A stretch of 64,000 bases of DNA from Mobula hypostoma (Eukaryota), in the NCBI RefSeq assembly GCF_963921235.1, contig NC_086097.1:103294001-103358000 (forward strand), in the 5' to 3' direction. This document shows, in pieces, positions 3,710-64,000 of this stretch. The notes under the pieces are model-generated. The model worked only from the letters and a program-made list of their open reading frames with translations, did not search any database and had not been told where the DNA came from. The stretch's first letter is position 1, and every line of letters begins with the position of its first letter. The translations under genes were made by a program, and so were the position numbers.

Positions 3710-5052
3710 CGGTAGATTCTAGTTAATTTGAACATATCAGGACTAGTACATTTTGGCCCAATTAAGTGGCTGCCTCATTTAACTGAAGTTACATGGAAAT
3801 GGATAAAAAGGTATCAAAGAGACAAATTGCTGTTAAACTGAGTAACAGTTATCTATTTAAATGAACTAGAGCAAATAAGAACACTACCAATGTTAATACA
3901 GCACTATAAAACGGTATTAGTTCCATGAACATTGCCTCACTACATTTTTTCCCATATATACTCATATACATATACACACACACACACTGGACCTCTTTGG
4001 GGGCTTTTGCTATTGCTTGCCTGGTCGGAGGGGGTTGGTGCTTTTCCTGGAGCAAGTGGTGGGAGAGTTGGGTGGAGGAAGGGCTTTGGGGTTTTGATGT
4101 TTCTATCATTCTGTCATTAATTCTTTGGTGTTATGGATGTCTGTGAAGAGTAAGAATTTCAGGTTGTATACTATACACACTCTCTGATATTAAATTGAAT
4201 CATTTGAACCATTTTCTTACTGTAATTTACAGTTATGTATACAATGTACTGCTGCTGCATAATAACAAATTTCATCATATGCTCATGATGTTAAACTTGT
4301 TTCTGATTTTGATGGCTATTGACAGAGGAATTCACCCAGTGTATACTGTTGTGTTCTTTTGATTGAATGTAAGTGAACAAAGTCAGTGCAGACACCCAGT
4401 GCAGATAATGAATTGCATTCATACAATGCCTTCAATGGTTGCATTGTCGAGATCTTCATTCTCATTGTAACATTCATGATGATACTCAATACCTTCAAAT
4501 TCTTGCAACACACATAAAAGTTGCTGGTCATCAGCAACTTTTATGTGTGTTGCTTGAATTTCCAGCATCTGCAGAATTCCTGTTGTTTACCTTCAAATGC
4601 TTGAATTTCCAGCATCTGCAGAATTCCTGTTGTTTACCTTCAAATTCTTCGTAGGTTGAAGTAGTGAAAAAATTTCATTTTCACTCTCGACCATTTCTGG
4701 TATCACCAAGTCTGAAAACTTGAAACCACAGTGAGCAATCCAGTTCTGAGTTGTATTACTGCTTATTTCTCGTCAACTATCAGTGACAAAGATCACTGCT
4801 TTTTGAACACAAACACACACAACTGACACTTAAAAACTGTTCGCTCTAAGCTCAGTGTAGTGTCTAACAGTCACATAAGTGCACGTGACTGACGCTAGTT
4901 AGAAACTGTTCAGCAACAATCTCTTGTCCTAATTAAGCGGCATAGTGTCCCAAATAAATGAAGGGAGTCCTGGCTATTTTTTCGTTTGTTTTTGTTCTTT
5001 AAGAGTTGTCCAAAAATAAGTGGATGCACCGATTAACTAATGGAATCTACTG
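3710..5052. mobile_element. non-autonomous Tc1/mariner-superfamily (Tigger/pogo-like) DNA transposon
   Basis: TIRs CGGTAGATTCTAGTTAAT (3710) and ...TGGAATCTACTG (5052), flanked by TA on both sides. Confidence 0.65.
4505..4634. repeat. Penelope-tail hairpin micro-insertion with 15-bp TSD and 47-bp tandem duplication
   Basis: 22-bp perfect inverted repeat 4505-4526/4532-4553; TACCTTCAAATTCTT at 4490-4504 and 4635-4649; 4551-4597 repeated at 4598-4644. Confidence 0.85.
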
Positions 5053-26450: not shown

Positions 26451-26759
26451 TGAGGTGTAGTCCATCTGGTCCGGTGATTTATCTACCTTCAGACCTTGCA
26501 GTTTCCCAAGCACCTTCTTCTTAGTAACAACAATCACACTCACTTCTGCCCACTGATATTCTTGAATTTCTGGCATGCTGCTAGTGTCTTTCACAGTAAA
26601 GACTGATGCAAAATACTTATGAAGTTCATCTGCCAAGTGGTCCGATATCCACTCTTGCCTCTATTTTACTCTTTGTATATCTGAAAAAAACCTTTGTTAT
26701 CCAGTTTTGTATTATTGGCTAGTTTACCTTCATATTTTATCTTTTCTAACCTTATGGCC

Positions 26760-28364
26760 TTTTGTCAGTAGCTGCTGTGCTTCCTCCATCTGGTCAGAGA
26801 GCAAGACTATGTCATCTGCAAAATCAAGATCTGTGGGTGTAACTGGTCTGACCCTTTTGGTTCGCCCTGGTTTTATGGTAAAACCAAGCTTGTCATGATC
26901 TTTAGTAGCTTGCCGCAGAGCGTAATCAAGGACCATTATAAAGATGTGGGGTGTCAGAGCGTCTCCTTGCAGCACACCAGCTAGGAGCTCGAACACTGCT
27001 GTTTCTCCGTCTGGTGATACAACTTTCGCCATGGTTTTGGTATAGCTGGACTCTATTGTTCTCAGTAGATGGTCTGGCACTCTGTAAGCTTTCAGGATCT
27101 TTAGCATTTTACCTCGGTGAATGGAGTCAAAAGCTTTGTGGAAATCGATGTAAGTAAGCACGGCTGGTAGGTTGTTCTTCTTGACTTTCTCGATGATCCT
27201 ACGGAGAGCAAGTATTTGCATTACTGTTGTGCGCTTCTGCCGAAAACCATTCTGATTGAATCCTAGCTTAGGATCAATGGCAGTGCGAATCCTGTTCAAA
27301 ATCATCAGATTGTATAGCTTTGCTAAGATGCAGGTGGAGCTGATACTGCGGTAGTTATCTGTCTTTGTGAGGGATCCAGACTTGGGGACTTGGAAAATGT
27401 TTGAGAGTGACCACTGTTCTGGTTTCTTGCCTTTCATCAATGCCGTATTACATATGTCCAGCAAGATGTCGTCCAGGCCGCAGTTCTTCAGGACGTCTGG
27501 CAGTATCCCATCTGGTCCAGCGCTCCTGCCCTGTTTGAGTGCATATTTGATCTTCTTCAGTTCCTCAATGGTGAATGGGCCGTCATCGATGTCGACTTGA
27601 GTTAGTCTCGTGGGTATGTCCTCTTCTTCTTCCTCTTCTGACAAAACTGGAAATAGAATGCAATAAAGTTGGACTTCACCTAAACACTGAAAAGACAGAG
27701 TACATGGCGTTTAACTGCGACGAAGGTACTCTCAAGACCATAGAGAATGATACCATTAAGAAAGTCTTTGACTACAAGTACCTCGGGTCAAGAATGATGA
27801 GTTCAGAGAAGGACATAAAGATACGGAAGGCGCTGGCGTGGAGGGCTATGAACGACATGAAGGAAATCTGGAAGTCAAACCTGACCAGAGGGCTTAAAAA
27901 GAGGATTTTCAGAGCAGTCATAGAGTCCATTCTCACGTACGGATGCGAGGCGTGGGCACTCACCAAGACGATGCTCAAGTCTCTAGATGGTTGCTATACA
28001 CGAAGGCTCCGGATGGCTCTTGATGTGAGTTGGCAACAGCACATGACGAACGTTGAGCTCTATAACAACCTACCGATGCTCTCCACTAAAATCGAGGCGA
28101 GAAGACTGCAACTAGCGGGGCACTGTCTACGCCACCCCGAGCTACCTGCCAGCCTAGTCATCATATGGGAGCCCAAGCACGGGAGGATGAACCCTGGGCG
28201 CCCTCCCAAGACTATGGTCAACATGCTCCTAGAAGACAGCGGCGCGGCTAATGTAGATGAACTGAACACACTGATGAGGGAGAGGGAGAAGTGGAGAGTC
28301 TGTCATCATGCCCAACACCAGCCCCCTAGGCCTGAGTCGACGTAGTAGTAGTAGCAGTAGTGAT
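26760..28364. mobile_element. RTE-clade LINE with inverted 5' half (26760-27637 minus, 27638-28364 plus)
   Basis: Minus ORF ends DLDFADDIVLL...QQLLTK and plus ORF resumes LTKLEIECNKVGL; (GTA)n tail; TSD-like CTTATGGCYTTTT at 26751-26763 and 28365-28377. Confidence 0.9.
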
Positions 28365-33284: not shown

Positions 33285-34474
33285 GGCTATGTCCACACTA
33301 GACCGGATAATTTTGAAAACGCCGGTTTCACGTAGAAACGACAGGTGTCCGCACTAGGCGTTTTTAAAAATACCTCTGTTCTCATTAAAACGGATATTTG
33401 GGCGAATCCCCTCCTACTGGGCATGCGCAGGAAACACAGAAAACAAGTGAAGAGGAAACGGTATACTTGGTGCGCGTTTGTCCAGTTACAGACTAGAAAA
33501 ACTTAAAAGGAAATTGCCAAATGAAAGACTTGGTGTGTGTTTGTTCAGTTACAGACTAGAACAACTTAAAAGGAAGTTGCCAAATGAAAGACTTGGTGCG
33601 TGTTTGTCCAGTTACGGACTAGAAAAACTTAAAAGGAAATTGCCAAATGAAAGACTTGGTGTGCGTTTGTCCAGTTACGGACTAGAACAACTTAAAAGGA
33701 AGTTGCCAAATGAAAGACTTGGTGTGCGTTTGTCCAGTTACGGACTAGAAAAACTTTAAAGGAAATTGCCAAACGAAAGATATGGTGTGCGTTTGTCCAG
33801 TTACGGACTAGAAAAACTTTAAAGGAAATTGCCAAACGAAAGATATGGTGCGAGTTTGTCCAGAAACATTTCCTACAGCCATAGTGTCTTCACCGATGAA
33901 AGGGACGACAGCTACAACTAAATGCAATAAGGCTTGTTACTGGGCAAAAGTGAAATTTGTTGTTACCTCATTTGTTTGCCTTTACTTTTGCCATGTCTTT
34001 GTATATTACTTTGCTGTGTTTAACGTGCAATAAAATGAGTTACTGGGCAAAAGTGACAATTGCATCTATTGAATGTTTGCACAAGCAATACATTAATGAA
34101 GCATCTTGCTAAATGTATAAAACACGTCTGCATCAGTGTTATCTTGTATTTCCATACAATGTTACATTCGGCTGTTATACATCTATTGTCAGATATTGTT
34201 GTGGTGTTGGAGGTTGCATTCAAGAAAACAATGAAATGCAGTGCTGCTGCCACCATTTGTTCTGGCATGTCATGACAGCGGTTTTTAAAATAGCCGGTTA
34301 CACTGTACACACTACGCCGGATATTAGGCATTTTCAGATGTATTCACTCTGGAGAGCGTTTCTGAAAATCTCAGTTTTTGGGGGAGGAAAACGCCCTTTC
34401 AGTGTGGACAGAGGGTCAAAACGAAGAGAAAAAGCTTTGGTTACGGATTTATCCGGTCTAGTGTGGACGTAACC
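33285..34474. mobile_element. non-autonomous PIF/Harbinger DNA transposon
   Basis: 26-bp TIRs GGCTATGTCCACACTAGACCGGATAA / TTATCCGGTCTAGTGTGGACGTAACC with TTA target duplication (33282-33284, 34475-34477). Confidence 0.9.
33465..33863. repeat. 63-bp minisatellite, about 6.3 copies
   Basis: Unit ACTTGGTGYGYGTTTGTCCAGTTACRGACTAGAAMAACTTAAAAGGAARTTGCCAAATGAAAG repeated head to tail without spacers. Confidence 0.97.
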
Positions 34475-34576
34475 TTAGTTTAGCTGTTATACTGCTTTCT
34501 GCCAGTGAGTGGGGATGAACCATTACATACTGTGAAAAATAGCTGCGTTTGTTAAAACCACAAATCTTATAAAATG

Positions 34577-35085
34577 ACACAGGCCAGGCAGCATCTATAG
34601 GAAGAAGTACAGTCGACATTTCAGGCTGGGACTGTTTGTCAGGACTAACTGAAAGAAGAGATGGTAAGAGATTTGAAAGTGGGAGGGGGAGATCTGAAAT
34701 GATAGGAGAAGACAGGAGGGGGAGGGATGGAGCCAAGAACTGGACAGGTGATTGGCAAAAGGGATATGAGGCTGGAGAAGGGAGAGGATCATGGGACGGG
34801 AGGCCTAGGGAGAAAGAAAGGGGGAGGGGAGCACCAGAGAAAGATGAAGAGCAGGCAAGGAGTGATTGTGAGAGGGACAGAGAGAGAAGGAAAAAAAGGG
34901 GAAAATAAATAAGGGATGGGGTAAGAAGGGGAGGAGGGGCATTAACGGAAGCTAGAGAAATCAGTATTCATGCCATCAGGTTGGAGGCTACCCAGATGGA
35001 ATATAAGGTGTTGTTCCTCCAACCTGAGTGTGGCTTCATCTTGACAGTAGAGGAGGCCATGGATTGACATATCAGAATGGAATGG
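34577..35085 (-). mobile_element. Penelope-like element 3' end with degenerate hammerhead motif (34611-34646)
   Basis: Minus strand encodes EATLRLEEQHLIFHLGSLQPDGMNTDFS (GIY-YIG C-terminus), then pyrimidine tract and CTGACAA...GAAATGTCGACT. Confidence 0.82.
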
Positions 35086-35264: not shown

Positions 35265-36533
35265 AAATCTAGATTAACTATTACAGGGAAGATTCTAGCA
35301 TGGATAAAGCAGTCAACACACATCAAAGTTGCTGGTGAACGCAGCAGGCCAGGCAGCATCTCTAGGAAGAGGTGCTGCCTGGCCTGCTGCGTTCACCAGC
35401 AACTTTGATGTGTGTTGCTTGAATTTCCAGCATCTGCAGAATTCCTGTTGTTTGCATGGATAAAGCAGTGGCTGATTGGCAGGAGGCAGAGAGTGGGAGT
35501 GAAGGGAGCTTTTTCTGGTTGGCTGCCTAGTGGTGTTGCATAGGGTCTGTTTTGGGACCGATTCTTTTTACATTATATGTCAGTGATTTGGATGATGGAA
35601 TTAGTAGCTTTGTTGCAAAGTTTGCAGGCACTATGAAGATAGGTCGAGGGGCAGGTAGTTTGAGGAAATAGGCTACAGAAGGACTTAGACAAATTAGGAG
35701 AATAGGCAAAGAAATTTCTGATGGAATATATGTCAGTAAGTGTAGGATCATGCACTTTAGAAGAAGAAATGAAAGGGTTGACTATTTTCTAAATGGAGAG
35801 AAAGTACAAAAAACTGAGACTCAAGGGACTTGGGAGTCCTTGTGCAGGATTTCCTAAAGGTTAATTTGCAGGTTAAGTCTGTGGTGAGGAAGGCAAATGT
35901 GATGTTGGCATTTATTTTAAGAGGACTAGAATATAGAAGCAAGGATGTAATGTTGAGACTTTATAAAGCACTGGTGAGGCCTCACTTGGAGTATTGTGAG
36001 CAGCTTTAGGTCCCTTATCTTAGAAAGGATGTGCTGAAACTGGAGAAGGTTCAAAGGAGATTCATGAAAATGATTCCAGGATTGAATGGCCTGTCATATG
36101 AAGAGTGTTTGATGGCTGTGGGTCTGTATTGACTAAAATTCAGAAGATTGAGGGTGACGTCATTGAAACTTATCGAATGGTGAAAGGTATTGGTAGAGTG
36201 GATGTGGTGAGGATGTTTCCTAAGATAGGGAGAGTCTAAGACCAGAGGGACAGCTCTCAGAATAGAGGGGCATCCTTTTAGAATGGAGATGAGAAAGAAT
36301 TTCCTTTGCCAGAGAGTAGTGAATCTGTGGAATTCTTTGCCACAGGCAGCTGTAGCAGGCTAGGTTTTTATGTATATTTAAGGCAGAGTTTGAATGATTC
36401 TTGACTGGTGAGGGCATGAAGGGATACTGGAAGAAGGCAGGAGATTGAGACTGAGAGGGAAATTGGATCAGCCATGCTGAAATGGTGGAACAGACCTGAT
36501 GTGCCAAATAGCCTAACTTGCTCCTATATCTTA
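35265..36533 (+). mobile_element. 5'-truncated CR1 LINE
   Basis: GSVLGP, FVAKFA, RPHLEYCEQ, FFxQRVVNLWN motifs with frameshifts. Confidence 0.88.
35314..35453. repeat. 140-bp Penelope-tail hairpin insertion with 16-bp TSD
   Basis: 50-bp inverted repeat 35314-35363/35368-35417 with one mismatch; GCATGGATAAAGCAGT at 35298-35313 and 35454-35469. Confidence 0.93.
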
Positions 36534-40620: not shown

Positions 40621-43600
40621 TCTATACCTATTAGTAATGAACTATACTGAAATTTCAGGCGTTCTGAGTTTTTCAGATTATCTGAGTAATTTGCACTTCT
40701 AGCTTTGTATGTGTACAACTGCACTGGTCATGATAATGCTTAAATCCAAAGCCAAATTCAATTCCAAACGTACTGAAGGATGAAGTGCACAACAAAATTA
40801 ATGAGGGATGAGAAATGCTTGCTGGGAACAGTACTAGCCATATCTAAAATATAGATGCTAACCCCATGAAGCTTCAGCATACGAGTACGTATGTGCAAGG
40901 CATCAAAACCACCATGCAATGGACATAGCTACTTGATTCCACATTAAATAGATTCTGTCCATCTGTATCAAGCCAGTAATTGTATGACCAATGAAGCAAA
41001 CAACAGATGCTGAGGCATCCTTGACTTTGATGATGGTGCTCAACATGACAATACTAAAGATGGAGCTGAAGCATTGACAACCACGTTCAGCCAGAATATG
41101 GTGATCCAATGAAAAGCAAACAATGGTAGATGCTGGAAATCTGAAATTAAAACACAAAATTCTTAGTATGCTCGGCAGGTCATGTAGCATCCGTGGAGAG
41201 AGAAATAGTTAACTCTTCAGTTTGGTAACTTCATTGTGTATAATAGCAATCTCCCGAGATTCTCACCATTGCTGAAGCCAAGTTTAAGTCAATTTGAATC
41301 ACTTCACATTAAGAAAGAGCTGAGAGCACTGAATGTACAGCAGTGGCTAAGACATCAGACAACATCCTGAGAGTAGTACAAAAGACATGCTCCAGAATTA
41401 GCCACATCTCCAACCAAGCGACTCTAATACAGTTAAAACACTAACCTGTAACCATTTCACAATAAGCAGGACAAATCTAGTCTGTCTAATTACCACCCAA
41501 TTAATCCACCCTCAATAAGGCAGTGGTATCACAGGACACCTAACCTCCAATAACCTGTTCATTTCTCAGTTTGGGATTTGCCAAGACCACTGCATCTCAG
41601 ACCTTATCGCAGCCTAGATCTAATTGTGGACTGTAGGTCTGAATGCTAGAAGTGAGGTGAGAATGACTTCACATCATGGCAGAGAATTTGACAAAGTACA
41701 CTAAGGAGCCTTGGTAAAATCGAATCAATGGGTATTAAGATGAAGGTATTCCATTAGTAGGAGTTGTTCCTTTCACAAAGAAAGGTGCTTGTGGTTGTTG
41801 CAGGGTCAGTCATCTGAGCTGCTTGAGTTCCTCCTTCAGTGAGTCTTCATCTTGGCTGTCCCAGTTGATTGAAATTCAACTGGATTACTCATATTAATAA
41901 TGTGCCTAAAAGAGCAATTCAAAGAGAAAAATGGCAAGTTCCCTTTGGGACATAATCAGAGGACTGTGCAGGCCAGAGGGTGGCAAGCTCAGGGGAACTA
42001 TCAGTGCTTTCCCCTCCCCCCCCCCAATCAAAGTCCAGATAGTCTACAGTGTGTGGTTCACCTCCTGTCATTACCAAAGCCTCTGCACCATTCACAGAAA
42101 ACCCAAGTCAGGAGTGTGAGGGAACGCTTTCCATTTGCATGGATGAGTGTAGCTCTGCTTAAGACCCAAGAAGTTCAATGTCACTCAACAAAGCAACATG
42201 TCTGATGTCCCATCAGCCATAGGAAATATTCACTCAATCTACCACTATGGCATAGTGGGTGCAATAGGTGCTACTGACACAGCAGTTTATTACTGAAATT
42301 ACTTCCAGAGCACATGCCAGGTCTTGACCTCTGCTGCCCAGAAGGATGAAAACAGCAGGTGCATGAGAACACCAATCTGTCATCATCACTAGGTTTTTAA
42401 ATTGAAACTTTTCTTATGCAGCTGTTATGTTGTGTTGGCTTAAAGGCAACACACACAAAATGCTGCACAAACTCAGCAGGTCAGGCAGCATATATGAAGG
42501 GAAATGAACAGTTGACATTTTGGGCCAAGAGCTTTCATCAGGTCTGAAAAGAAGAAGGACAAAATCCAAAATAAAAGGGTGTGGGGTAGTGATCAGCATG
42601 AGCTGGCAGGTGATAGGTAAATCCAGGTGAGAGGGGGAAGGGAAAAGGACAGGAAAGGGGCAAAATTGGGAATGATGTTCAAAGTAAATTTATTATCAAA
42701 GTACAGGTATGTCACTATATGCAACCCTGAGATTCATTTTCTTGCGGTATTGCGGTAATGTAAAAAGAAAAAAAAAGCAATAAATATTGAGAGCATGATG
42801 TGAACAGTCTTTGAAAATGAGTCCATAGGTTGTGGGAACAATTCTGTGTTGTGTGAATGAAGTTTATCTTCCCTGGTTCAAGAGCCTGATGGTTGAGGGG
42901 CAATAGCTATTAGAACCTGGTGGTGTGGGTACTGAGGATCCTGTACTTCCTTCCTGATGGCAGCAGTGAGAAGAGAATGGTGGGGGTCCTTGATGGATGC
43001 TACTTTCTAGTGAGACCACTCCTTGTAGATGTGCTCAGTGGTGGGGAGGGCTTTACCCATGATGGAATGGACTAGACTGAACTGTACCCACTATATTTTG
43101 TAGGCTTTTCTGTTCAAGGGCATTGGTGTTTTCATACCAGGCTGCAATGCAACTAGATATGAGAAAGTGGGAGATGGTGGATGGAAGAAGCAAAGGGCTG
43201 AAGAAGATGGATAGCAGACCGAGGAGGAATAGAGTGTAGTTGGTTGTATCTAGTGCACGAGCAAGCCTTCCTCCACATTTGGCTAATGATGTGTTAGATG
43301 AAGCTTGGGAGTAAAGTAGGTTTTCATTTCCAGTTTTGGAAATTAATGTTTTTGGAATTTTCTGATAATATTTCTCCACAAGTTATCAGACACACCTTGC
43401 ATGAAATGAACCTGCCTAAAACTGAGAGTTCATTGTCTGTACCCTATTATCAAGTGGACTATACAAAGAGGGAGATTGGCATGCTTGGAGAGTTCTCTTG
43501 AAAGGTTATTGATGTGAAACATTAATTCTGTTTTCTTATCCATGAATACTGTTTGATCTGCTGAGTACTTCTGGCATAATCTGTTTTTATTTCTTAGATT

Positions 43601-45600: not shown

Positions 45601-46355
45601 TACCTTCCAAGTGAAACTTCAGTAGGAAGAAGTGAAGGTTGGAAAATGTAAGTTGCTGCCAATCGGCCATTGCTGAATGGCCATTCATACCAACTATAAA
45701 CTATCTGTACACCCTAAATAGAGTTTACTATTTTTTCCTGGCTAGGTTATATCTGTAGGACTTCATCTTCAGTTAGTTAAATATTAGAAGCAAGGTACCA
45801 GAGTTGTGAAGATATGGTAAAGCAAAGAGTAGAAACAAGGTCAGAGAGAAAGGTATCAATATGGGAAACATCAAATCCACTGTGACAGAAAGAAAGAGGT
45901 AGTAGCCTAAGAGTAAATTGCTGGACAAGGCTGAAGGTTACAAAAGTAATTAAAGGGTGAAACTAAATGTTCCTAACTTTACAAAACATTCAAAGCAAAA
46001 CAGATGAATTGGGAGCATCACTAGAAATAAATGTGATTTGACTGCAGAGTAGATTTCATAGTGACTGGGCAAGTCTTGTACAGTTACTTATTAGCACTGA
46101 ATATTGAAGGGTTCGTGACATTAAGGAAGGACACAAAGTTAAGATGGAGGAGTGGCTATATTAATAATGGTCAGAGCATTAGAAAAAGAAGACCCAAATA
46201 AATTAAGGTGTGGAAGTGTTTTGGATGTAGGCATTCAAGTCTAGAGATCGAGAACGTGACAAGAGATGCAGGTATGATCTCTGGAAAGCTATCTCACAGG
46301 TGAAGTGGAGATTCCAAATTAGGCTGGAATCGACGAGGGATGCTTGACAGCTGTG

Positions 46356-46513
46356 AACAACAGGAATTCTGCAGATGCTGGAAATTCAAGCAACATACAT
46401 CAAAGTTGCTGGTGAACGCAGCAGGCCAAGCAGCATCTATAGGAAGAGGTGCAGTCGACGTTTCAGGCCAAGACCCTTCGTCAGGACTAACTGAAGGAAG
46501 AGTGAGTAAGGGA
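46356..46513 (-). mobile_element. 158-bp Penelope pLTR insertion
   Basis: 12-bp TSD TTGACAGCTGTG (46344-46355, 46514-46525); same family as 34577 and 35314. Confidence 0.88.
46453..46488 (-). ncRNA. minimal type-I hammerhead ribozyme motif
   Basis: Minus: AGUC-CUGACGA-AGG(GUCUUGG)CCU-GAAA-C-GUC^GACU: intact core, stem II AGG/CCU, stem I AGUC/GACU, helix III reduced to palindromic ACGU. Confidence 0.75.
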
Positions 46514-47582
46514 TTGACAGCTGTGGCAGGGTTTAATTCATAATCCCTACAAATTTAAATCTTGCAATATAGGGGACAGCAGAGCTTTGCTTCCAGAAGA
46601 GCTCAATGCTTTTTATGTTCGCTTTGATCACCAGAACAGGGAGGCGATGTCTCCCGGTGATCCTTTGGTCTCAGTATTTGAAAATGACGTGCAGGCTGCC
46701 TTCAAGAGGGTGAATCTAAGGAAAGCAACCAGTCTGGATGGAGTACCTGGCTGATTACTGAGACCTGTGCTGACCAACTGGCTTGTGTATTCATGGATAT
46801 CTTCAATCTTTAGCTCTCGTAGTGTGTGGTACCCACCTGCTTCAAGTTAGTTTAATCATACTGGTGCCCAAGAAGAGTGTGGTAATCTGTCTCAATGACT
46901 ATCAGCCAGTGGCATATACATCCACAGTGATGAAGTGTTTTGAGAGGCTGGTATTGAAGCATATCAACTCCTGTCTGACGACTTGGATCCGTTCCAATTC
47001 ACCCAACGGAACAACAGGTCCACAGCAGATGCTATCTCATTAGCTCTTCACACAACTCTGGAACATCTGGATAGCAATGCTGCATACATCAGGCTGCTCC
47101 TTATTGATTACAGCTCAGCATTTAACACCAATATTCCCTCAAAGCTAATCAGTAAACTTTAAGACTTGGGCCTCAATACCCCCTGGTGCAATTGAATCCT
47201 GGATTTCCTCAGATGTAGACCCCAGTCAGTTTGGATTGGCAAAAACATCTCCACAATCACCATCAGCAAAGGAGCACCACAGGGATATATGCTTAGCCCC
47301 CTGCTCTACTCAGTTTACACCTATGTGTGGCTAAGTACAGTTCTAACACCACATACAAATTTGCTGATGACACCGGTGTTGTGGATTGTATCAAAGGTGG
47401 TGATGAATCAGCATACATGAGGGATATTGAAATATTGTCTGAGTGATGTAATAACCTTTCATTCAATGTTAGCAAGACCAAGAGCTGATTGTAGACTTAA
47501 GGAGAAGGAAACCAGAGGTCCATGAGCTAGTACTCATTGGAGGATCAGGAGTGGAGGGGGTAAGTAACTTTAAATTCCTGGG

Positions 47583-47697
47583 AACATACATCAAAGTTGC
47601 TGGTGAACGCAGCAGGCCAAGCAGCATCTATAGGAAGAGGCGCAGTCGACGTTTCAGGCCGAGACCCTTCGTCAGGACCAACTGAAGGAAGAGTGAG
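47583..47697 (-). mobile_element. 115-bp Penelope pLTR insertion inside the Rex1-like LINE
   Basis: 12-bp TSD TAAATTCCTGGG (47571-47582, 47698-47709). Confidence 0.88.
47644..47679 (-). ncRNA. minimal type-I hammerhead ribozyme motif
   Basis: Minus: GGUC-CUGACGA-AGG(GUCUCGG)CCU-GAAA-C-GUC^GACU; intact core. Confidence 0.75.
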
Positions 47698-48265
47698 TAA
47701 ATTCCTGGGTGTCACTATCTCAGGTGACCTATCCTGGACCCATCATATGAGTATAAATGCAAAGAAATCACGACAGCGCCTCTACTTCCTCAGGAGTACG
47801 CAGAGATTCGGCATGTCATCAAAATCCTTGGCAGACTTCTATAGAAGTGTGGCAGATACTGTGCTGACTGACTGTATTATGGCCTGGTATGGGTACACTA
47901 CTGCCTTTGGTGCAAAATTCTACAAAAGGTAGTGGATTTGGCCCAGAACATCACGAGTAAAACCCTCCCAATCACTGAGCACATCTACGTGAAACATTAC
48001 TGTAGAAAAGCAGCATATATCACCACAGATCCCCACCACCCAGGCCATGCTCTTTTCTCACTGCTGCCATTAGATAGAAGGTACAAGTGCCTCAGGATTC
48101 ACACCACCAGGTTCGAGAACAGTTACTCCTCCTCAACCATCAGGTTCTTGAACAAAAGGGGATACCTACACTCATTCTACTTCTGGCGTTCCCACAGATG
48201 ATGGTCTCACTTTAAGGACTCTTTATCTTGTTACTTCATGCTCATTATTTACTGCTGTTTATTTA

Positions 48266-63319: not shown

Positions 63320-64000
63320 CAAACCAGAGAAAATCTGAAGATGCTAGAAATGTAAGCAACACACGCAAAATGCTGGAGTAACTCAGCAGGCCAGGCAGCA
63401 TCGATGGAAAAGAGTATGGTTGATGTTTCAGGCTGAGACCCTTCATCGGGACAGGAGAAAGACAGGGAATCAGAGTTAGAAGGTGGGTGTGAGGGGAGGA
63501 AGAAACACAAGGTGATAGGTGAAATCAGGAGGATGGGGGAGGGATGAAGTAAAGAGCTGGGAATGTGATTGGTGCAAGAGATACAGGGCTGCAGCAGGAG
63601 AATCTGATGGGGGAGTACATAAAGTCATGGAAGAAAGAAAAGAGGAAGGAGCGCCAGAGGGAGTTGATGGACAGGGAAGGAAATGAGAGAGGGAGAAGGG
63701 ATTGGGGAATGCTGAAGGGGGGTGAGGGTGGCATTACTAGAAGTTTGAGAAATTGATGCTCATGCTATCAGGTTGGAGACTACCCTCCCCCCATCCCTTG
63801 CTTTATGCTTTCCGCAGGGTTGCGCCCTATGCGACTCCCTTTTCCAGTCATCTTGCCCCAGTATTCTCCCTCGTGATGCTACACCTGCCTCTACATCTCC
63901 TTGCTCGTTACCATTCAGGGCTCCAAACAGGCCTTTCAGGTGAGGTGACACTTCACCTGTGAGTCTTTTGGGGTCATCTACTGTATCTGGTGCTCCTGGT
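63320..64000. mobile_element. Penelope-like element with inverted parts (pLTR minus 63320-63785; GIY-YIG region plus 63790-64000)
   Basis: Minus pLTR with degenerate hammerhead motif 63418-63453; plus strand FQVR.HFTCESFGVIYCIWCS is the GIY-YIG N-terminus. Confidence 0.75.

Follow-up and report, generated by a model that had tools for sequence, protein, structure and literature searches.

The anatomy of Penelope-like elements (PLEs), as set out by Craig et al. (10.1101/2021.04.23.441226), includes partial tandems, pseudo-LTRs, a tail and a CX2-5CXXC linker. In the account given in PMC4209133, solitary minimal hammerheads occur in truncated PLE copies, with thousands in animal genomes, and the G10.1-C11.1 pair is highly conserved in minimal PLE hammerheads. 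For the Anolis carolinensis element PAc, PMC11167929 reports that reverse transcription starts internally, on either side of the tail, that protein assists the hammerhead, that the main substrate is RNA left uncleaved and that, in the RNA-seq results as described, no ends fall at the cut, whilst Drosophila Penelope has been assigned an internal Inr/DPE promoter in its pseudo-LTR (PMC2377424). Here we describe two short inserts in the genome of Mobula hypostoma which, with a probability that we put at roughly 0.9, represent the 3' ends, truncated on their 5' side, of an abundant PLE that codes for protein and is, judged by its sequence, autonomous; each was inserted with its own target site duplication (TSD) into one old LINE, likely by two independent reverse transcription events on RNA that the hammerhead had left uncut. 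With solitary minimal hammerheads in its truncated copies, the element is a further member of this already known class, and it may already be catalogued in Repbase or Dfam.

Two inserts in an old LINE and their coding parent

Within the window (the whole 64,000-nucleotide stretch that was analysed), insert 1 occupies 46356..46513 on the minus strand (158 bp, spanning about -57 to +101 when counted from the predicted hammerhead cut) and is a pseudo-LTR stub with a tail; insert 2, at 47583..47697 on the same strand (115 bp, about -50 to +65), is without the tail. The two family 3' ends lie about 36 bp apart, near +65 and +101-107, and the 36-bp tail of insert 1 (46356..46391, minus strand) falls between them (+65 and about +101), in keeping with bimodal 3' ends. 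The inserts lie 1,191 bp apart, are 97% alike over their common part and contain no ORF themselves. A different 12-bp word flanks each, twice per insert, at 46344..46355 and 46514..46525 for insert 1 and at 47571..47582 and 47698..47709 for insert 2. The sequence between them (46514..47582, plus strand) is an old, decayed LINE with RVT_1 fragments, continuous with both outer flanks, which is 65-81% identical to its paralogues and colinear with them through both insert sites. Among the fetched loci the site-2 word is single in 11 paralogous LINE copies, so the insert 2 duplication is real; the site-1 word is likewise single in the one paralogue that spans site 1 (L165), so that of insert 1 is real too. 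The coordinates, the 12-bp TSDs and the empty paralogous sites thus agree with the initial annotation in its description of two TSD-flanked minus-strand inserts carrying a hammerhead motif.

The same alignments bear on the idea of one composite insertion, in which a 1.34-kb LINE piece was mobilised in trans between two direct pseudo-LTRs. The direct orientation of the pseudo-LTRs would fit, and a host-gene precedent is described in Adineta vaga (PMC3846280), but each insert has its own, different TSD with no common outer TSD and the LINE is colinear through both sites; the idea is largely refuted by the empty-site alignments and we give it almost no credence. A retrozyme tandem array was also considered and rejected, the inserts being two separate TSD-flanked units split by LINE sequence.

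Two variants common to the inserts define a subfamily with 10,952 exact 46-nt matches in the genome, while the alternative alleles have 27,842. The latter are carried by the copy at 35314..35453, a head-to-head inverted insertion of the sister subfamily, which holds no hammerhead because both of its truncated arms begin downstream of the cut, at +7 and +21. Over 93 nt, 42 of 90 other subfamily copies are identical to insert 2 and 67 of the 90 have 1-2 differences from insert 1, which bears out the earlier view that the inserts are young.

Exact matches to a 33-nt core number 47,717 in a genome of 3.48 Gb (reversed control, 0), and at many of the first 30 core loci the same sequence extends as much as 1.4 kb further upstream, reaching Penelope-type frames for RT and GIY-YIG. 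A 90-aa RT piece gave 38,449 candidates, and 4 of the 150 scored lie in 1,043-aa open frames. Four full-length copies (L056-L059) consist of 3,514-bp units in partial tandem, each unit comprising the RT, a CX4CXXC linker, a C-terminal GIY-YIG, a 3' UTR, the hammerhead motif and the tail. In the 1,043-aa frame, RVT_1 matches at 534-696 (E=3e-5) and GIY-YIG at 946-1022 (E=4e-4), both with scores under the Pfam cut-offs, and translations place CX4CXXC upstream of the GIY-YIG motif. Direct partial repeats of 89-1,189 bp surround the four copies; they are 93-99% identical to insert 1 and 92-99% identical to insert 2, mostly 98-99%, which upholds the proposed Penelope pseudo-LTR origin of the inserts. 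From domain order and linker, rather than from a tree, the parent element appears Neptune-like. Its protein has 1,572 relatives at E<=0.001 among 8,000 candidates, the closest named ones among these being from Chiloscyllium punctatum (69-72% identity), in line with the elasmobranch host named in the initial annotation; a PDB sequence search with the element ORF returned no matches, and literature searches on Penelope-like (Neptune) elements in sharks and on Penelope among the transposable elements of stingrays found no paper.

The four full-length copies, with their intact 1,043-aa frames, are 98-99% identical and differ mutually at 24-61 of 3,129 nt. With its near-identical young copies and four intact frames, the family has been recently active, as had been proposed, and may still be so.

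In the youngest subfamily the CATAC variant adds an in-frame ATG to the long ORF; it sits right where the shorter 3' end falls, and the following ATG of that ORF comes 26 codons later. This ATG lies on the minus strand at 46394-46396 and 47585-47587 and also occurs in L056-L059, L063 and L065; in full-length copies the one corresponding to 46394..46396 is codon 2 of the 1,043-aa frame (six of seven long-frame copies). The first in-frame ATG is 60 nt downstream of the predicted cut.

The initial annotation saw in the inserts a non-coding, retrozyme-like family. An element of this kind, arisen from the pseudo-LTR as a non-autonomous line of its own (retrozyme- or SINE-like) and multiplied through a separate short RNA, would account for the abundance of short copies, about half of the young copies being no longer than 170 bp (105 of 203) with clustered 5' ends, and retrozymes have been proposed to derive from PLE pseudo-LTRs (10.64898/2026.07.22.740005). 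Against this, the alleles at four variable sites do not differ between short and long copies in either subfamily, because of which we do not regard the stubs as a separate family; the 5' ends grade continuously into the ORF, i.e. form a strong 5'-truncation gradient; tandem hammerhead arrays are absent here; and the window's two stubs begin at different points upstream of the 5'-end peak considered below. An independent non-coding lineage was rejected on this shared allele spectrum and on the 92-99% identity to full-length repeats. The annotation's non-coding label therefore falls, the stubs being truncated copies of a coding element, and a separate short element seems to us improbable.

Other members of the family lie elsewhere in the window, including a very short inverted insertion at 4491-4640, followed by a tandem tail repeat with a repeated target word; an older copy that lacks its 3' part and whose hammerhead is damaged (34550-34645, minus strand); and further old relatives at 246-356, 938-1049, 42470-42545 and 63322-63452. 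The window also contains a tandem array with a 63-bp period (33393-33896) and, at 26733-27710 on the minus strand, a 326-aa open frame (RVT_1, E=1.7e-23) of another retroelement, which is absent from the fetched loci.

The hammerhead motif and the proposed dimer

The minimal type-I hammerhead motifs lie on the minus strand at 46452..46489 in insert 1 and 47643..47680 in insert 2, with cuts predicted from sequence at 46457/46456 and 47648/47647. In both inserts the minus-strand order is stem I, CUGACGA, A, stem II, GAAAC and GUC^GACU; the core (C3-A9, G12-A15.1 and U16.1-H17) and stems I and II are present, as is the ACGU palindrome at 15.2-16.2. A loose hammerhead descriptor has 3 matches in the window against 1.37 expected, a number reached in 14 of 100 shuffles, and an Rfam scan found no hammerhead family match at E<=1. 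Descriptor matches by themselves are not above chance in the window, and the case for a hammerhead rests on context and conservation.

Conservation was assessed in older copies picked by downstream sequence only. At nine non-CpG core positions the commonest letter fills 595 of 671 cells (0.89) in the 77 older copies kept of 102, a count biased upward by the dropping of 25 copies with <55% alignment over the motif; the adjoining stretches, which are pyrimidine runs with indels, give 425/625 (0.68) downstream and 418/589 (0.71) upstream. The core letters of both inserts are the commonest letters in these 77 copies. The free position N7 is the variable core site (commonest letter 0.55), and the extra A at 9a is found in 69 of the 77 old and 321 of 333 young copies. 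The excess conservation of core over flanks that had been anticipated for the family is thus observed, with the upward bias noted. Stems I and II show only one-sided G-C/G-U shifts, at 2.5-1.5 and 10.1-11.1, and no common two-sided compensatory change was found in either stem, the subfamilies compared being too close for covariation to tell. Conservation of the core indicates that the motif has been kept across subfamilies. Constraint acts on it in the source elements, in which the hammerhead likely takes part, aided by protein, in the processing of element RNA; the stubs likely just carry it along passively.

Both inserts have G10.1-U11.1 (position 11.1 is 46465 and 47656 in the window) rather than G10.1-C11.1, and among young copies stem II is closed by G-U in 254 of 333 and by G-C in 55. 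The better register of stem II is G-G-G-U/G-C-C-U with a bulged A, closed by this G-U pair, and for insert 1 has a predicted energy of -7.0 kcal/mol versus -5.6 for the register given in the initial annotation. In folding predictions, which leave out magnesium, tertiary contacts and protein and so are weak evidence, the hammerhead fold of the monomer has a share of <0.1% and the core pairs with itself. Because G-U replaces the conserved G-C and because of this low predicted share, in this lineage the motif may be weakly active or inactive. The U at 11.1 together with the C at N7, present in most young copies, lets the catalytic core pair with cut-site bases in the predicted folds, and the ribozyme of the young copies is possibly self-inhibited or weakened.

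The two motifs had also been proposed to act together, pairing through the ACGU palindrome on one antisense RNA as a dimeric hammerhead and releasing a 1.2-kb fragment. They do lie on the same strand, 1,191 bp apart and with intact cores, and minimal hammerheads are proposed to act as dimers, with low dimer activity in vitro (PMC4209133). However, random placement predicts about 390 same-strand pairs within that distance in the wider family and about 20 in the subfamily, and the inserts are no closer to one another (2 differences in 93 nt) than typical subfamily pairs, 83% of which differ by no more than 2 nt; the common variants, on which a special link had been based, simply mark the subfamily. 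What separates the two inserts is dead LINE sequence. Within the predicted fold of the 1.37-kb RNA the probability of helix III is <0.0001 and that of stem I at most 0.007, the helices needed for release of the fragment thus having <0.01 probability, and two insert-1 motifs in the proposed dimer fold have a predicted energy of -11.5 against -32.1 kcal/mol for the best dimer. In the Xenopus experiments described in 10.64898/2026.07.22.740005, 8 of 9 dimer elements showed no cleavage in vitro. A Pfam scan of 150 of the 237 non-repeat frames, for a host gene that might supply an antisense transcript, gave only retroelement-type matches; as short exons would escape it, such a gene may still exist. 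In the contigs of four sequencing runs, depth tracks the 3'-to-5' gradient of the genomic copies, which speaks neither for expression nor against it. Release of the fragment is unsupported, and we consider a functional pair very improbable. The closeness of the inserts is likely due to chance; since the per-copy chance of a neighbour within 1.2 kb is only 0.2% for the same subfamily (0.2-0.8% overall), some local clustering is conceivable.

Insertion ends and the RNA template

In this young family, which has intact ORFs, the ends of tens of thousands of near-identical members amount to a fossil record of the insertion reaction and bear on two points: whether Penelope RNA is cut by its hammerhead ahead of reverse transcription, and where its transcript starts. 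All target copies sampled lie within the first 33 Mb of a single contig, the fetched loci standing in for genome-wide counts. Copies were picked by a 46-nt word downstream of the cut, such that ends at the cut are visible; 5'-end counts (n=203) leave out 8 copies from loci picked on the core, expected counts are the rate further upstream, and the two arms of one inverted insertion are not independent. TSDs of at least 8 nt flank 47 of 108 non-inverted copies versus 4 of 300 shuffled flank pairs, and in 57 of 60 inverted insertions a long arm is joined to a short one, each with a different 3' end of the family. Two family stubs (in the L165:7418 region and in L161) have uncommonly long apparent TSDs, of 38 and 24 bp.

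The 5' ends pile up at the edge of the hammerhead, with 41 of 203 at -36..-28 against 2.2 expected, i.e. about 19-fold over the upstream rate, whereas the cut itself (-4..+4) has 4 of 203 against 2.5 expected (P=0.25). The pile-up is present in both subfamilies (20/103 and 24/108) and in non-inverted copies, where 18 of 110 ends lie in the peak and 1 at the cut. Because copies end far more often at the front edge of the motif than at the cut, the RNA templates were likely uncleaved. Whichever 3' end a copy has, the peak does not shift (medians -31 and -32), from which we infer that it is set by position, not length; length-limited reverse transcription was rejected as its cause on these grounds. 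There was likely a fixed RNA start or a reverse transcription stop at the 5' edge of the ribozyme. The inserts' own 5' ends (-57 and -50) fall on the shoulder of the family peak, with 2-3 nt of microhomology. In window coordinates, the -36..-28 interval corresponds to 46484-46492.

With respect to mechanism, by analogy with PAc the element protein would nick the target and reverse transcription would start inside the RNA at either tail end, at +65 or about +101 counted from the hammerhead cut; cDNA synthesis would then pass through the intact, uncut motif and stop early, leaving a stub. Stops would be clustered at helix I either by an RNA start at an initiator-like word or by a stall at a pyrimidine tract and AG.

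We give about even odds to a stall, rather than a true RNA start, as the origin of the pile-up, whether caused by proteins on the pyrimidine tract and AG or by GTC..GAC self-complementarity. Spread broadly from -19 to -54, the peak covers a pyrimidine tract (46490..46513, minus strand, directly upstream of the hammerhead) that includes a branch-point-like word and an AG, both kept in older subfamilies; in the first sample, inverted junctions showed the peak about twice as strongly; and in Drosophila Penelope an intron is described as ending at hammerhead helix I (PMC4209133). Against a stall, the peak persists in the non-inverted copies, and four of these abut their TSD without a gap precisely at -31. 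Nor was splicing to a common upstream exon seen in any of 13 rearranged copies, or a canonical GTRAG-type donor found in the 3' UTR.

A true start would fall at a word of the form YYANWYY, the initiator consensus, at -34..-28. More tentatively, and in our estimation rather unlikely in its full form, the element RNA could begin at the first base of the hammerhead, with tail-primed reverse transcription running off there. The tens of thousands of 95-135 bp stubs would then be integrated 'strong-stop' cDNAs made from uncleaved RNA, and a jump of the cDNA to the 3' repeat could build pseudo-LTRs without a circular template. Searches of the literature on Penelope, pLTRs, truncation and hammerheads found no 5'-end hot spot, and figure S2 of PMC11167929 and bioRxiv supplements may show one.

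Comparison with described systems

Like the animal non-LTR retrozymes, as described in 10.64898/2026.07.22.740005, the present stubs are short, hammerhead-bearing and related to pseudo-LTRs; retrozymes, however, are tandem hammerhead units without a coding region, whereas the stubs are single, dispersed and derived from a coding element. The resemblance to the metazoan PLE minimal hammerheads of PMC4209133 extends to the core boxes, the lack of helix III, the palindromic ACGU, the extra nucleotide after A9, a short helix I and the occurrence mostly as single, dispersed motifs from truncated elements. In contrast with the motifs described there, most young copies of the present family have G10.1-U11.1, and helix II has only 4 bp.

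As in the published account of PAc (PMC11167929), two 3' ends bracket the tail at the start of the open frame, and the hammerhead lies near the ORF start with no sign of ends at the cut. PAc differs from the present element in belonging to the Poseidon clade, in having its cut 26 nt inside the ORF and in its reverse transcription starts, which are near +111-118.

There is also a likeness in organisation with the Neptune-clade EN+ PLEs, as described in 10.1101/2021.04.23.441226, which share with the present element a single ORF with RT, Zn-finger-like linker and C-terminal GIY-YIG, partial-tandem pseudo-LTRs, heavy 5' truncation, inverted truncated copies (60 insertions here), a 30-40 bp tail on one end and a hammerhead in the pseudo-LTR. 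The present element differs from that description in its very high copy number, with at least 47,717 near-identical cores, and in the sharp pile-up of its 5' ends at the hammerhead edge.
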